In this document: positions 11,499 through 17,264 of the stretch, piece after piece
How positions within the stretch are numbered: the stretch's first letter is position 1
How the letters are laid out: each line of letters opens with the position of its first letter
NCBI RefSeq assembly: GCF_022846255.1
Contig: NZ_AP025682.1
Length of the DNA stretch: 64,000 nucleotides
Reading direction: 5' to 3' (one strand)
Source of the DNA: Escherichia coli
Lineage (GTDB): Bacteria > Pseudomonadota > Gammaproteobacteria > Enterobacterales > Enterobacteriaceae
The notes under the pieces: generated by a model
What the model was told of the DNA's origin: nothing
The model's input: only the letters and a program-made list of their open reading frames with translations
Database searches by the model: none
Position numbers and translations under genes: made by a program

Positions 11499-13001
11499 TT
11501 ATTCATCAATTCGCGGATGTTGCTGCACCAGGCGGGTACGTTTCGCCTGCAAATCGGCAATCTCGTGGTCAATATCATCGATTTTCTGCTCGATATTATC
11601 GTAATGCTCGACGAGAATTTCCTTCGCTTCCTGTATATCTGACGCCGCTGGTGTCGCACCTTTCAACGGTCGATTCGCCGTCTCTTTCATGGTTACGCCG
11701 GTGATTAAACCAACCACCGCCACTACCATCAGGTAATAGGCAGGCATCATCAGATTCTGCGAGCTTTCGACCAGCCAGGCCGCCAGCGTTGGCGTCAGAC
11801 CGGCAACCAGCACCGAAATATTAAATGCCGCCGCCAGCGCGCTGTAACGGATATGCGTCGGGAACATCGCAGGCAAGGTAGAAGCCATAACGCCCGTAAA
11901 GCAGTTAAGGATCACCGCCAGCATCAATAAGCCGGCAAAAATCAGGCCGATGACGTTACTGTTAATCAGAATAAACGCCGGGATCGCCAACACAAACAGT
12001 GCAACACTACCAAGAAGCACAAACGGACGACGGCCAAAACGGTCACTCAGCAAGCCCATCACCGGTTGAACAAACAGCATACCGATCATAATGGCGATAA
12101 TAATCAGCACCCCGTGGTCTTCGGAGTAATGCAGGTTATGCGACAAATAACTCGGCATATAGGTCAGCAACATGTAGTAAGTCACGTTGGTGGCAATTAC
12201 CAGACCAATACATGTCAACAGGCTGCGCCAGTGTTTGGTGGCAATCTCTTTAAACGAGACTTTCGGGCCATCCTGCAAACCTTCGCGGTCGCCCTGTTCC
12301 AGTTTATCGACATGCTGCTGGAACGCCGGAGTCTCTTCCAGCGCATGGCGCAGGTAAAGCCCGATAATCCCTAACGGCAGAGCGATAAAGAACGGAATAC
12401 GCCAGCCCCAATCGAGGAAGTTCTCTTCGCCGACAATGGTCGAAATTAACACCACTACGCCAGCTCCCAGCACAAACCCGGCAATAGAACCAAAGTCCAG
12501 CCAGCTGCCCATAAAGCCACGTTTACGGTCAGGGGAGTATTCCGCAACAAATATTGACGCCCCGGTATATTCACCGCCGACCGAGAAACCTTGTGCCATC
12601 TTACAGATCAACAGCAGAATCGGTGCCCAAATACCAATCGTGTCGTAGGACGGTATTAAGCCAATACAGAACGTACTGATCGACATAATCACAATAGTGA
12701 TAGCGAGGATCTTCTGGCGACCATATTTATCGCCCAACATACCAAAGAAGAGCCCGCCAAGCGGTCGAATCAGAAAGGGAACGGAGAAAGTGGCGAGTGC
12801 AGCAACCATCTGCACGCTGGGGTCAGCCCCCGGGAAAAAAACTTTACCTAATGCGTAAGCAACAAAACCATAAACACCAAAATCGAACCATTCCATTGCA
12901 TTACCCAGTGATGCTGCGGTAATGGCTTTACGCAGTTTACCGTCATCAATAATGGTGACATCACGAAGGGTAATCGGTTTTACTTTTTTCCTTTTCAGCA
13001 T
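11499..13001 (-). CDS. proP: proline/glycine betaine:H+ symporter, osmosensing MFS transporter
   Basis: ORF track 11499..13034 trimmed to the start giving 500 aa (MLKRKKVKPITL...); MFS with C-terminal coiled-coil. Confidence 0.9.
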   Translation of the reverse strand: MLKRKKVKPITLRDVTIIDDGKLRKAITAASLGNAMEWFDFGVYGFVAYALGKVFFPGADPSVQMVAALATFSVPFLIRPLGGLFFGMLGDKYGRQKILAITIVIMSISTFCIGLIPSYDTIGIWAPILLLICKMAQGFSVGGEYTGASIFVAEYSPDRKRGFMGSWLDFGSIAGFVLGAGVVVLISTIVGEENFLDWGWRIPFFIALPLGIIGLYLRHALEETPAFQQHVDKLEQGDREGLQDGPKVSFKEIATKHWRSLLTCIGLVIATNVTYYMLLTYMPSYLSHNLHYSEDHGVLIIIAIMIGMLFVQPVMGLLSDRFGRRPFVLLGSVALFVLAIPAFILINSNVIGLIFAGLLMLAVILNCFTGVMASTLPAMFPTHIRYSALAAAFNISVLVAGLTPTLAAWLVESSQNLMMPAYYLMVVAVVGLITGVTMKETANRPLKGATPAASDIQEAKEILVEHYDNIEQKIDDIDHEIADLQAKRTRLVQQHPRIDE

Positions 13002-13264
13002 AGCTTTCCTCGCAGAGTTGGCCCATTTCCGCAAACGCCAGAAAAATCAGCGCGACGGCCGCAAAAGGGGAGCGGGAATTGCAGGATGCAATCTCTGTAA
13101 CAAGCGTAGCGGGTTTGCTTACACCCTCCGGTTAAGGAATGTACAATCAAACCAGTTGACGCCTGAATTGGGCAGTTAATGACCTTTTTACCCTACCAGT
13201 GTTTAAATTTGTGATCAACTTCACACATGTATTTCGTTTAGGACTCATTGGTGTAACTGATTAT

Positions 13265-14143
13265 TTACACCAAATTTACAGAGAAGATTTCCTCGACCAT
13301 TGCCCCCGCCAGACGCTGCGCTGAACAGAGTCGTGGCATCCCCAGCGCGACAGTTTGCCAACGTTGGGTCACTGACCAGCAAACGGGTTGTTTATCTGCC
13401 GTGGTCCACTTTCCCAGCCAACTTAAAAAATCAGCATGATCCCCGCCCGTCGGAATGGTCGAAGAGGCAAACCACTGATGGTAATAGTGACGCGTGGTCG
13501 GGGCCGCATTGATACTCTCTGCCAGATGTTGTGTCGCTTTCACGCGCAAATCACCCAGCAACAACGCCACCGCTTGCGGGCTTCCCAGACGAAAGGCATC
13601 GCCAAATGCACCCCAGCGCAACTCCTCCAGAACGATAAAACAGCGCCCAGGCAACGACCAGGCGTTATACGCCCCAGCACGCCAGCGGGTAAAAATTTGC
13701 TCGCTCTGATCACCTGCCTGCACCAGTAGGCCTCGTTGCGTTAACGCCTTTTCCTTCCAGCGACAACGGGCTGAAAACCACTCATACAAGGCGGCTATTT
13801 GCTGGGGGAGCTCAGGGAAAGCAGAGTGCTGGCGGTGATCCATTTTTTGCAGCAGCGCCAGATGTTGCGCGATCTGCGTCAGCGCCAGATGACCGGGATC
13901 CAGCATCGACGCCAGTTTTTCCACCAATGTCAGACGCAGGCTAAGCGGCGCATTTAACATCCCGCCGTTCGTCCATGCCTGAAGCTGCACACGCGCAAGA
14001 AGTTCCTGCATCAGTCGTTCACGAAACTGCTGCTGATGGGCTTGTGGATGGCGGGCATCATCGCCCTGCGCCAGATCCACTAAAAAGCGCGGATGAACCG
14101 ACTCCAGCACGCGACCGGGGCCGTCCAGTAACGTCTTGGTCAA
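13265..14143 (-). CDS. yjcZ: conserved protein YjcZ (CrfC partner)
   Basis: ORF track 292 aa; 4-nt overlap with the upstream crfC stop suggests co-translation. Confidence 0.8.
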   Translation of the reverse strand: MTKTLLDGPGRVLESVHPRFLVDLAQGDDARHPQAHQQQFRERLMQELLARVQLQAWTNGGMLNAPLSLRLTLVEKLASMLDPGHLALTQIAQHLALLQKMDHRQHSAFPELPQQIAALYEWFSARCRWKEKALTQRGLLVQAGDQSEQIFTRWRAGAYNAWSLPGRCFIVLEELRWGAFGDAFRLGSPQAVALLLGDLRVKATQHLAESINAAPTTRHYYHQWFASSTIPTGGDHADFLSWLGKWTTADKQPVCWSVTQRWQTVALGMPRLCSAQRLAGAMVEEIFSVNLV

Positions 14144-16368
14144 TATCGTTCTGCCGTGAAAAGTGTTTGAATATCATCGCGTAACAGCTGAGCGTCGGTG
14201 CAAATCCAGCTGTGAGTCATCACAGCCTGCTGCAATTGCTGCTGCATCAGCCTGACCACCGATTCATTTTGTTGACGCAGAGCCAGGCTTTCGCGTAAAC
14301 GCGTCTGTAATTCCGTCAAACATGAAGCGAACTCAGCGAAAAAAGTATTCATGCCTGCCGTAACAGATTCATCGACCTGCTCTGCCAGAACTTTAGCCAT
14401 TTGTTGGCAATAAAGATCGACTTCTGCGCTTAATGCTCGTTGCAACACACTGTAATCAACCGTCTCTGTCGGGGATTTCTCATTTCCCCGTCCCCAGTCG
14501 GGCTGATTCAACCAGCGCGAAAAAGTCTCACGCACAACGCCTAAACGCGTGCTCTGCTCGTCCGTTGCTTCCTGGCGCGAAATGACTTCACTGAACAGCT
14601 GGCGAGTGTTGAAGTGGGGAACTGCGCCGTGAAAAACAGGAAAATGAAACCCAGGACGAAACCCTGACTCGCTCAATTCCATTTTGATTTGTTGCTCAAT
14701 GGGGCGAATAACATCGGTTAACACCCGGCAAAGGGTAGATTCCAGCTCGGCAAAACGCAGCGTAAAGTCGCGACAGATGGTGTTCTGCGCCGTCTGTAAC
14801 AGTGTCTCACAGCGGGTACGAATCTCGCTTAACGGCTCCGAATCATCCTGAAACAACGCGGCTAACTGTGCATTCAGCGCATCTTGCTGTTGACGCAGAA
14901 AGTGGTTGGCGGAGGTCAGGGCCAGCTCGATTTCATGTTTAATCTCGCCGCTCACCTGCGCCTGATTGAGTTGAAATAGCTGCAAACTTTCTTCGACCTG
15001 ATGGATATTTTGCCGCAATTGTTCACAAGCGACGTTTAACCCGTGCGCACGAAAATCCAGGTATTCCCGCGCCTGCTGCGCGTAATTCAACAGTTTATGC
15101 ACGGCAGATCGCAGAGCATACAACGAGGCGTTAGCGTAAGCGGCATGAAGCAACGCCTGAATTGGCTGGGCGAACAGCGAATCTTCCCACAACTGATCGG
15201 CAGCATGACGAATATGTTCGAGGTCAGCCAGATCGGCATGACGCCAGCGCCTGCCGAGCGCGGCATGGGCAAAATCTTCCACCCAGCGTTGTTGTTGGGG
15301 GTCCGGCAGTCTGCCGCTGCTAGCTAACTCATGGCGAGCCCGATTCGCCAGATAGCCCCACATCGAAGATACCGGAAATATCTGCCCTGGCGTAACGCAG
15401 CCTTTCATCAACGTCCCGGAAATCAGCGCCCGCACCTGTTCGGCGTCGTCACTGTTACGATCCTGTTGATCGAACTTATTGACCAGCACATACAGCGGCA
15501 CCGATTGCCCCACCGCCAAAATCGCCTCACGGACCTCTTCATCGGAGATCGATTTCAGTTGCGTATAATCCAGCACCGCCAGTACCGCCGAGGCGCGTGC
15601 CAGCTGCTGGTTAAGCATTTTTTGCAGATGCGGTTGCCCGGCTTCATTTGGCCCGGGGGTATCCAGTAACGTCAATTGACCGGGATAACTCTCCAGCCCC
15701 GCCAGATGGACAAACTCCACTTCAATCACGGGAATATGCTCAATGGCGGCGTAAGCAGAAAAAGGAAAATCGACGTCCAGCGCCTTCGCCAGTCGCACCA
15801 AATCATTCAAACTTTTCAGACAATGAAAAATAGGCTGGGCACCCAGATAATATTTTTCGAAAGCGACGCCATTTTCGATCCGCTGCATAAGCGCACGCAT
15901 ATCTTTATCTATTTCCAGCACATCGGTCAGATGCTTAATATCGCAATCACGCAGGCGCTGTTGTAATTTTTGAATTAAACAATCGATTGGCGCGACATGT
16001 GAAAAATGCAGTACCGGTTCCTTTTGCCCGGGCGTATGGCGAATAAGCGTCGGCAGCGCAGTCATTGGGCGATTACGATTAGGCAAAACCTCCGTACCAA
16101 CAATGGCATTAATGGTGGTTGATTTCCCTGCTTTCATGGTACCGACAATCGCCAGCACCATTTCCAGTCGGGAAATTTTACGCAACTCATTATTCAGCAT
16201 CGCGTGACGTTCGGCGATATTAGGCTGACTCCAGGGTAAAGCCAGTTGTGGCGCATCGTCTCCTGGGACAGAGAGAGGCATTTTTTCCAGTAACTGCAAC
16301 TGTTGGCGAGAAAGCTGTAACAGGCGTTCAGCCTCCTGACTTAACTCATACAGGGTCTGTGTGTACAT
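14140..16368 (-). CDS. crfC: dynamin-like GTPase CrfC (YjdA)
   Basis: ORF track 742 aa; P-loop GTMKAGKST near the N-terminus; long coiled-coil regions. Confidence 0.85.
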   Translation of the reverse strand: MYTQTLYELSQEAERLLQLSRQQLQLLEKMPLSVPGDDAPQLALPWSQPNIAERHAMLNNELRKISRLEMVLAIVGTMKAGKSTTINAIVGTEVLPNRNRPMTALPTLIRHTPGQKEPVLHFSHVAPIDCLIQKLQQRLRDCDIKHLTDVLEIDKDMRALMQRIENGVAFEKYYLGAQPIFHCLKSLNDLVRLAKALDVDFPFSAYAAIEHIPVIEVEFVHLAGLESYPGQLTLLDTPGPNEAGQPHLQKMLNQQLARASAVLAVLDYTQLKSISDEEVREAILAVGQSVPLYVLVNKFDQQDRNSDDAEQVRALISGTLMKGCVTPGQIFPVSSMWGYLANRARHELASSGRLPDPQQQRWVEDFAHAALGRRWRHADLADLEHIRHAADQLWEDSLFAQPIQALLHAAYANASLYALRSAVHKLLNYAQQAREYLDFRAHGLNVACEQLRQNIHQVEESLQLFQLNQAQVSGEIKHEIELALTSANHFLRQQQDALNAQLAALFQDDSEPLSEIRTRCETLLQTAQNTICRDFTLRFAELESTLCRVLTDVIRPIEQQIKMELSESGFRPGFHFPVFHGAVPHFNTRQLFSEVISRQEATDEQSTRLGVVRETFSRWLNQPDWGRGNEKSPTETVDYSVLQRALSAEVDLYCQQMAKVLAEQVDESVTAGMNTFFAEFASCLTELQTRLRESLALRQQNESVVRLMQQQLQQAVMTHSWICTDAQLLRDDIQTLFTAERY

Positions 16369-16769
16369 AGAAAATTCTTCCTTAAAGCAAATTTTGTTAC
16401 TTTTATTTAGCCAGATTGTTTTTGAGTTCTGTTTTCGGCTTTTATAATTACTGCAAGAAATAATTTTATATTTAGAGTGTTGTTTTTTATTAGAATAAAT
16501 AATGTCTTCCGATACGTTTAAAACGTCAGAAAGATAAAAATATCATTTGAATTAAAAAAAGAACAAGTAGAGCATTAACCTTATCTTAAATAATAAATGG
16601 AGGCAAAAAGATTATTTTCTTTTTGCGTTTCCTTTCAAATGAAAACGATCGTCGTCTAAAATCAGCAGTACCCCCGACAAACTCAGGGATTTTGTGTATA
16701 ATTGCGGCCTTTTTCGGCAATCTGCCGTTTTTTGGCGCTTTTGCCCTGCTGACTTTTGAGGAAATCCAC

Positions 16770-17105
16770 ATGTCATTACCACACTGCCCAAAATGCAACT
16801 CCGAATACACCTACGAAGATAACGGCATGTACATCTGCCCGGAATGTGCCTACGAATGGAACGACGCAGAACCTGCACAGGAAAGCGACGAGCTGATCGT
16901 TAAAGATGCTAACGGCAATCTGCTGGCTGACGGCGACAGCGTTACCATCATTAAAGATCTGAAGGTGAAAGGTAGCTCTTCGATGCTGAAAATTGGCACC
17001 AAAGTGAAAAACATCCGCCTGGTTGAAGGCGACCATAACATCGATTGCAAAATCGACGGTTTTGGTCCGATGAAACTGAAATCTGAGTTTGTGAAAAAGA
17101 ACTGA
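16770..17105 (+). CDS. yjdM: zinc-ribbon protein YjdM (PhnA)
   Basis: ORF track 16623..17105 trimmed to ATG 16770 (111 aa, [19 protein letters not shown]...); CxxC...CxxC zinc ribbon. Confidence 0.85.
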
Positions 17106-17123
17106 TTGTATTGTGATCGGTAA

Positions 17124-17199
17124 GCCGGATAAGGCGCTCGCGCCGCATCCGGCAACGATGCCGACAGCCTGATGCGACGCTGACCGCGTCTTATCAGGC
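17124..17199. repeat. REP (repetitive extragenic palindrome) pair
   Basis: gccggataaggcgctcgcgccgcatccggc and gcctgatgcgacgctgaccgcgtcttatcaggc; typical REP stem-loops. Confidence 0.75.
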
Positions 17200-17264
17200 T
17201 TCCCTCTCATCTGTATAAATTTCGAACTACACTTAACTGGCTTCTCTTAACTGAGGTCACCATC

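Follow-up and report, generated by a model that had tools for sequence, protein, structure and literature searches.

The AT-rich spacer between crfC and yjdM of Escherichia coli is probably an ordinary divergent promoter and leader region

The spacer separating crfC (minus strand, starting at 16368) from yjdM (plus strand, starting at 16770) is probably an ordinary divergent promoter and leader region, serving yjdM on one side and rdcA-rdcB (crfC-yjcZ) on the other. There is no good evidence for a hidden gene, a small RNA or a special silencing site within it. The initial annotation of this DNA had already pointed to promoter DNA between two divergent genes, and this agrees with what we found: promoter-like sites are enriched in the spacer (5, against 1.2 +/- 1.2 in shuffled sequences), the yjdM promoter is conserved, and ChIP-chip regions for RNA polymerase (RNAP), sigma70 and sigmaS lie on it. 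The only mildly new item is a covarying stem-loop in the yjdM leader.

All positions refer to the window, that is, the whole stretch of 64,000 nt that was analysed, in which the spacer occupies 16369-16769 (401 nt). The window belongs to an E. coli chromosome of a non-K-12 strain. It runs opposite to the MG1655 map, and the coordinates can be roughly converted as MG1655 v3 = 4343504 - window position. The equivalent spacer in MG1655 (4326735-4327134) is one nucleotide shorter, at 400 nt, owing to a 1-nt indel at 16400. The newer gene names rdcA and rdcB come from Pfiffer et al. 2019 (PMC6510439). As the initial annotation had stated, no annotated gene accounts for this region. No feature is annotated in the spacer in the MG1655 RefSeq record, and in the RefSeq E. 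coli records sampled among the 5,413 genomes with the region, only crfC and yjdM were found under the match, the sole exception being an IS1 insertion in the spacer of a single strain. The divergent crfC/yjdM pair was found in Escherichia, Citrobacter koseri, C. amalonaticus, Yokenella, Leclercia, Scandinavium, Cronobacter and Kosakonia. Klebsiella and Pluralibacter are without crfC, and there proP adjoins yjdM. In E. albertii, rdcAB is deleted and the spacer is retained.

Table 1. Genes, zones and sequence elements in and around the crfC/yjdM spacer (window positions; an arrow marks elements read on the minus strand in their 5' to 3' direction)
Feature	Position	Strand	Description
proP	11499-13034	minus	
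yjcZ/rdcB	13265-14143	minus	
crfC/yjdA/rdcA	14140-16368	minus	
yjdM/phnA	16770-17105	plus	followed by yjdN, phnC
Zone 1	~16630-16769		yjdM promoter and leader; almost invariant within Escherichia
Zone 2	16369-16455		crfC-proximal, conserved; ribosome-binding site and -10-like TATAAA
Zone 3	~16456-16630		AT-rich middle; most variable, indel-rich; weak promoter-like elements only
yjdM core promoter (predicted)	16674-16702	plus	-35 CCGACA 16674-16679, 17-nt spacer, -10 TATAAT 16697-16702
yjdM 5' leader (predicted)	16707-16769	plus	~62 nt; Shine-Dalgarno GAGGA 16758-16762
Leader outer helix P1	16704-16709 paired with 16734-16738	plus	
Leader stem-loop P2	16715-16727	plus	CGGCA-AUC-UGCCG, then U6 16728-16733
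crfC (rdcA) Shine-Dalgarno	16377-16383	minus	AAGGAAG, 8 nt before the ATG at 16368
crfC-proximal block	16451->16435	minus	GTAATTATAAAAGCCGA; -10-like TATAAA 16446->16441
Distal promoter-like block	16606->16578	minus	TTGCCT-17-TAAGGT; 7/12 matches, weak
Promoter-like site towards crfC	16638->16611	minus	TTGAAA-16-AATAAT; 10/12 matches
Promoter-like site	16517-16546	plus	TTTAAA-18-TATCAT; 9/12 matches, weak
Perfect 9-bp inverted repeat	16603-16626		GCAAAAAGA-N6-TCTTTTTGC; terminator-like on the plus strand
20-codon ORF	16597-16659	plus	not a gene; without Shine-Dalgarno

The AT-rich region had been delimited with correct coordinates in the initial annotation. Its GC content is 31.3% over the 401 nt, with 25.3% in 16369-16660 and 47.3% in 16661-16770, and the window mean is 53.1%. 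The lowest-GC stretches of 200, 300 and 400 nt in the 64-kb window all fall in this spacer; three other spacers of the window are nearly as AT-rich (28-30% GC). The long A and T tracts mentioned there are also present, with eight runs of at least 5 nt, which corresponds to about 20 per kb versus 3.4 per kb window-wide (~6x). The suggestion that the DNA is curved stood only for one part of the spacer. In a rough implementation of the Bolshoy-Trifonov wedge model, the AT-rich core is about average and has no predicted bend (end-to-end/contour ratio of 0.94-0.96 over 16380-16540 versus a window mean of 0.96), whereas a bend is predicted at 16650-16770, centred at 16709, on the yjdM promoter and leader. 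By the same rough model, only two other 120-bp segments of the window are more curved than the one centred at 16709, and T-tracts at about 16690, 16710, 16728, 16740 and 16754 are roughly phased within the predicted bend. Horizontal transfer was considered as a source of the AT-richness and rejected, since crfC has a GC content of 51.5% and crfC/yjdM are syntenic in at least 8 genera. With a normal GC content in crfC and conserved synteny, this is therefore not foreign-looking DNA.

Comparison across nine genera, based on six alignments and a further nine-sequence Escherichia alignment, revealed three zones in the spacer (Table 1). The number of variable columns per 50 nt is 27 and 23 in the centre (16469-16568) versus 0-2 near yjdM, and only 2 variable columns were found in 16669-16768 in the nine-sequence alignment. 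Immediately upstream of yjdM, 110 nt share 98% identity with E. albertii and 86% with C. koseri, the corresponding values for yjdM synonymous third positions being 83% and 75%. The middle zone differs widely in length among genera, and it is base composition rather than sequence that is maintained there. We suggest that this AT-rich middle would be promoter-upstream or 5'-UTR DNA, encoding no protein and no independent RNA gene.

On the yjdM side, transcription would start at about 16707-16709, judging from the position of the -10, under a sigma70 promoter close to the consensus (CCGACA-17-TATAAT, matching it at 10 of 12 positions). CCGACAA and TATAAT are retained from Escherichia to Klebsiella, Pluralibacter and Scandinavium, including genera devoid of crfC; the -35 and -10 are present in most of the 16 aligned sequences and unrecognisable in Proteus and Serratia. 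The putative leader would open with a small conserved stem-loop of two helices, P1 and P2, followed by six U residues. If transcription starts from G16707, P1 would pair the very first nucleotides of the mRNA. P2 with its U-tract (CGGCAAUCUGCCG plus U6) was flagged as terminator-like in our scan, and its stem is G+C-rich but consists of only 5 bp with a 3-nt loop. P2 alone has a calculated energy of -5.3 kcal/mol, and P1 and P2 together have one of -12.0 kcal/mol.

The pairing of P2 has been kept through sequence change. In 8 sequences from 8 genera, three of the five pairs are altered on both sides, with compensatory changes to CGACA/UGUCG in Leclercia, CGGCU/AGCCG in Klebsiella and AGGCA/UGCCU in Kosakonia. 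This level of covariation was attained by 2 of 500 shuffles, and slid controls stayed much lower. RNAalifold returned the inner four P2 pairs as the only consensus structure. Folded as a whole, the yjdM leader is not stabler than shuffled sequences (z = -0.7), and in one C. amalonaticus strain both the P2 stem and the U-tract are lost. To judge from these comparisons, the leader stem-loop is under selection. Its role would be the protection of the mRNA 5' end, or that of a weak pause or attenuator. Most likely the hairpin shields the 5' end or causes a pause; given its weak stem, and with no 3' end at this site among the Term-seq rows listed, a true attenuator is less likely. A possible anti-Shine-Dalgarno pairing (16652-16668 with 16746-16762) was discarded, as its upstream arm, situated ahead of the yjdM promoter, is not conserved in Citrobacter.

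On the opposite strand, rdcA would be translated from the conserved AAGGAAG ribosome-binding site. TTAAGG is invariant across 10 genera, and on the crfC strand of the proximal zone the TTAAGGAAG ribosome-binding site is invariant and AAAATTTGCG is also conserved. Transcription of rdcA may come from at least one weak promoter, the proximal and widely conserved TATAAA, and possibly also from distal sites at 16583->16578 and 16616->16611. The GTAATTATAAAAGCCGA block containing TATAAA is conserved in at least 5 genera: a pattern search located it in Escherichia, C. koseri, Leclercia and Kosakonia, and it is aligned in Cronobacter with 1 mismatch. It lies 60-70 nt upstream of the ATG where this was measured (E. 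coli, Leclercia and Kosakonia), its alignment in Citrobacter and Cronobacter falls in the corresponding position, and no recognisable -35 was found for it. Of the candidates for the rdcA core promoter, or for the 5' end of its leader, this block is the best conserved, and it would give a 5' UTR of ~65 nt.

The distal elements are restricted to fewer taxa. In TTGCCT-17-TAAGGT, found only in Escherichia and Citrobacter, the hexamers are conserved and the spacer between them is variable, the -10 appearing as TAATGT in K-12 and as TAATAT in E. albertii. The site TTGAAA-16-AATAAT is invariant in Escherichia and absent in Citrobacter, and it falls inside the sigmaS ChIP-chip region described below (16510-16759). 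These distal rdcA candidates agree slightly better with the sigmaS and RNAP regions, while the proximal block is the most widely conserved; the data are compatible with either. A FliA promoter upstream of crfC was also considered and rejected, since no -35 of the TAAAGTTT type is correctly spaced and the ChIP-seq site is inside the gene. Fitzgerald et al. 2014 (PMC4183435) placed the FliA promoter of this operon inside yjdA, where it drives yjcZ, and declared the upstream FliA promoter a wrong prediction; the position of their FliA motif corresponds to 14368-14395 in the window, within crfC.

Published occupancy data cover the spacer. In supplementary file 3 of Cho et al. 2014 (PMC3923258), which uses U00096.2 coordinates (the offset to v3 was measured as 1976), three ChIP-chip regions fall on it: RNAP_1973 (4324644-4324994, window 16534-16884, centred at ~16709), SigD_1665 (4324731-4325168, window 16360-16797) and SigS_912 (4324769-4325018, window 16510-16759). 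RNA polymerase with sigma70 and sigmaS is therefore bound to the spacer in vivo. The centre of RNAP_1973 coincides with the predicted yjdM start, at a ChIP-chip resolution of ~350 bp that does not separate individual promoters. No start site in the spacer was found among the listed entries in the supplements of Kim 2012, Cho 2014 and Ettwiller 2016, and the genomic-SELEX list of 'constitutive' RpoD promoters is without an entry for the yjdM/yjdA spacer. All start sites given here are predicted positions because the start-site supplements gave no entry for either gene. Among the Term-seq rows listed (Adams et al. 2021), there is no 3' end at 4326xxx/4327xxx, while neighbouring loci are present; the check for an unannotated transcript suggested in the initial annotation thus yielded no 3' end in the spacer among these rows.

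The idea of a small RNA in the spacer, also raised in the initial annotation, turned out to be weak. It would be an independent RNA on the yjdM strand, either similar to Ssr28 or of about 80 nt (from ~16553 to ~16636), and we consider it quite improbable. For Shigella flexneri 301, Wang et al. 2016 (PMC4782007) predicted Ssr28, a 328-nt RNA on the phnA strand of the yjdA/phnA spacer, from a promoter and a terminator, and a positive RT-PCR was the only test. However, that paper is without northern blot or 5'-RACE, and RT-PCR would equally pick up a long rdcA 5' UTR or the yjdM leader. At its predicted length, Ssr28 would cover most of the spacer and probably end at the yjdM leader hairpin, and it may therefore be no more than a signal from a 5' UTR or from read-through. 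The sole small-RNA-like arrangement that we found is the one of ~80 nt, with a plus-strand promoter-like site (16517-16546) and the terminator-like hairpin of the inverted repeat (16603-16626), and the 46-nt fold holding this palindrome (16595-16640, -13.6 kcal/mol) is stabler than shuffles (z = -3.6). Against it, the candidate -10 and the RNA body fall where the spacer varies most, TATCAT (16541-16546) varying within E. coli and among Escherichia species, and the hairpin is an A5/T5 palindrome. As the palindrome is confined to Escherichia, and as its pairs are broken without compensation in E. albertii and Escherichia sp. E1V33, it was rejected as a conserved RNA or operator. A scan against Rfam 15 (E-value cutoff of 10) gave only chance-level matches in the spacer, such as STnc410 (14 bits, threshold 50) and MIR529 (17 bits, threshold 75), and the Term-seq rows listed hold no 3' end there. 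A small protein gene in the 20-codon ORF (16597-16659) is extremely unlikely. The ORF had been described as the only one in the spacer and as lacking a convincing Shine-Dalgarno; it is present, and no Shine-Dalgarno precedes it, but the spacer fully contains two more ORFs of 20 codons or longer (16694-16759 on the plus strand and 16683-16769 on the minus strand), and several longer ORFs extend into it across its ends. It starts with ATG in the window strain, O157, ST131 and Seattle 1946, but with ATA in K-12 and O104:H4 and with CTG in E. whittamii and Escherichia sp. E1V33, and a 1-nt deletion causes a frameshift in E. albertii. We rejected it as a gene on account of this start codon, polymorphic within E. 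coli, and of the E. albertii frameshift; most of the ORF also coincides with the A/T palindrome and promoter-like sites.

Two further explanations ascribe a regulatory function to parts of the spacer. In one of them, the AT-rich core would be a platform for H-NS, possibly also for Fis or IHF, silencing or modulating the rdcA-rdcB promoter. We regard this as possible but doubtful, and it is compatible with a divergent promoter region. H-NS prefers AT-rich DNA, and some binding from AT-richness alone is plausible, the core having 25% GC over 290 nt, the AT-richest stretch of the window. Escherichia, Citrobacter and Yokenella have retained the composition but not the sequence (lowest 200-nt GC of 22-28%), and the rdcA promoter candidates are weak. 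However, the lowest 200-nt GC reaches 33-39% in the spacers of Leclercia, Kosakonia and Cronobacter, which also carry crfC. The H-NS motif prediction proposed in the initial annotation gave a negative result: from 77 window matches to TCGATAAATT with up to 2 mismatches, none is inside 16369-16769, and no IHF consensus WATCAANNNNTTR was found in the spacer with up to 1 mismatch. The lack of a bend in the core in our rough wedge model, the presence of RNAP, sigma70 and sigmaS on the spacer in vivo, and the old, conserved synteny of a crfC with normal GC content, which is not foreign DNA, also argue against a silencing platform, as does the expression of RdcA, whose protein was detected throughout growth (Pfiffer et al. 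2019, PMC6510439). The other explanation takes the yjdM leader stem-loop and its U-tract (16715-16733) as a working terminator or attenuator that aborts most transcripts about 25 nt from the start unless signalled otherwise, which we judge unlikely. The architecture is indeed terminator-like and the P2 stem covaries; Escherichia, Citrobacter, Yokenella and Leclercia have a U-rich run after the stem, different hairpin-plus-U elements occupy the same leader in other genera, and an alternative UGCC/GGCG pairing appears in the full-leader fold. Yet the stem is as short and weak as described above, with its 3-nt loop, and the whole leader is no stabler than shuffled sequences. No 3' end is found near 4326771 among the Term-seq rows listed, in which neighbouring loci are covered, no ligand-binding or leader-peptide feature was seen in the leader, and it has no Rfam match.

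Within the divergent promoter and leader region that we favour, a more specific joint reading can be put forward tentatively, in which the leader stem-loop and U-tract (16704-16738) would set yjdM mRNA stability or premature termination, together with a role for the distal rdcA promoter block. In its rdcA part, which is equally speculative, a start from 16606->16578 would produce an AU-rich leader of ~200 nt and allow post-transcriptional control of RdcA-RdcB. If true, the long rdcA leader would be a control point for the RdcA-RdcB activator of DgcE. The significance of these findings is small, and the understanding of such spacers is unchanged. The transcription of rdcA is nevertheless worth knowing because RdcA and RdcB activate DgcE, the diguanylate cyclase that tops the E. 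coli biofilm-matrix cascade. YjdM, in turn, is a highly conserved zinc-ribbon protein, and its conserved promoter and structured leader are an entry point to its regulation.

The elements of the spacer belong to familiar types, and the spacer is already included in published genome-wide data. As in FliA (sigma28) promoters, rdcA-rdcB are in the flagellar regulon and GCCGAAAA in the conserved block resembles the -10 GCCGATAA, but the spacer has no -35 at the correct spacing for TAAAGTTT-N11-GCCGATAA. It shares a very low GC content over ~290 nt with H-NS-silenced promoter regions and differs from them in having no high-affinity motif or core bend, in being bound by sigma factors and RNAP, and in its flanking genes, which are neither AT-rich nor recently acquired. 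With Ssr28 of S. flexneri 301 it has in common the same location, the yjdM strand, and promoter-like and terminator-like sites. Certain stem-loops at the 5' terminus stabilise mRNAs, as in the ompA 5' UTR, and such stabiliser hairpins do not need a U-run. The yjdM hairpin is likewise small and conserved, lies a few nt from the predicted 5' end and has kept its pairing, but differs from the ompA type in being followed by a U-run. Intrinsic-terminator attenuators in 5' UTRs are a class catalogued by Term-seq (Adams 2021, PMC7815308); a stem-loop with U6 inside a 5' leader is also what yjdM has, although its stem is short, weak and only ~10-25 nt from the start. Compared with the divergent sigma70 spacers of E. 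coli, the promoter on the rdcA side differs in having no recognisable -35, while the back-to-back genes, the near-consensus -35 and -10 of yjdM, the AT-rich DNA upstream and the occupancy by RNAP and sigma factors are those of this class.

In Escherichia albertii (L017, 2054-3000), rdcA-rdcB (crfC-yjcZ) is deleted, the remnants matching window positions 13035-13396, 13731-13824 and 16307-16368. This species still has, adjacent to yjdM, the AT-rich spacer together with the initial 62 nt of crfC. Outside the Escherichia-Klebsiella group, the contexts of yjdM are unrelated, the gene lying between miaB and ybeZ in Serratia (L020) and, in Proteus (L026), following a gene of the LacI family, and the CCGACA/TATAAT promoter was not recognisable at yjdM in either of these two loci. 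In Erwinia sp. CPCC 100877 (L025, 1-958), yjdM is divergent from a gene for a GGDEF-domain protein (diguanylate cyclase), a curious neighbour given that the one in E. coli encodes RdcA, which activates the diguanylate cyclase DgcE.

The database gene calls for YjdM are often N-terminally extended, with 133 to 168 aa, and these forms look like the product of mis-called start codons. The length of one 160-aa form (P0004) corresponds to a TTG-initiated ORF on the plus strand at window 16623-17105, which spans the conserved yjdM promoter and leader.

Two E. coli strains carry altered DNA upstream of these genes. In K_EC180 (NZ_CP062203), an IS1 insertion 28 nt ahead of the start codon of crfC, at the equivalent of window ~16396/16397, separates the crfC ribosome-binding site from all candidate promoters; rdcA should then no longer be driven by its own promoter. 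In AVS0747 (NZ_CP124467), the native sequence ahead of yjdM extends only to position -12; beyond this point its place is taken by a truncated cupin gene and by genes for electron-transfer flavoprotein, and the promoter and most of the leader of yjdM are gone. We also found CrfC and YjdM encoded on a 2-kb contig binned with a Chloroflexi MAG ('MAG: Leptolinea sp.', JALHEL010000372.1). Both proteins are 99% identical to those of E. coli, and the contig is almost certainly a contamination of the bin.

Two further features lie in the neighboring sequences (see table). A FliA promoter located within crfC is reported to drive yjcZ/rdcB (Fitzgerald 2014, PMC4183435), and an exact copy of its motif is present here.

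Features flanking the crfC/yjdM spacer, in window coordinates
Feature	Position	Strand	Location	Match
FliA (sigma28) promoter motif TAAAGTTCTGGCAGAGCAGGTCGATGAA	14368-14395	minus	within crfC	exact copy
REP/naRNA4, one unit	17123-17200		between yjdM and yjdN	Rfam RF02564, 85.5 bits

The yjdM-yjdN spacer has 159 nt in the window and 657 nt in MG1655, where REP325, described in the literature as a six-repeat cluster, occupies this site. With the single unit found here, the number of REP copies between yjdM and yjdN therefore varies from strain to strain.
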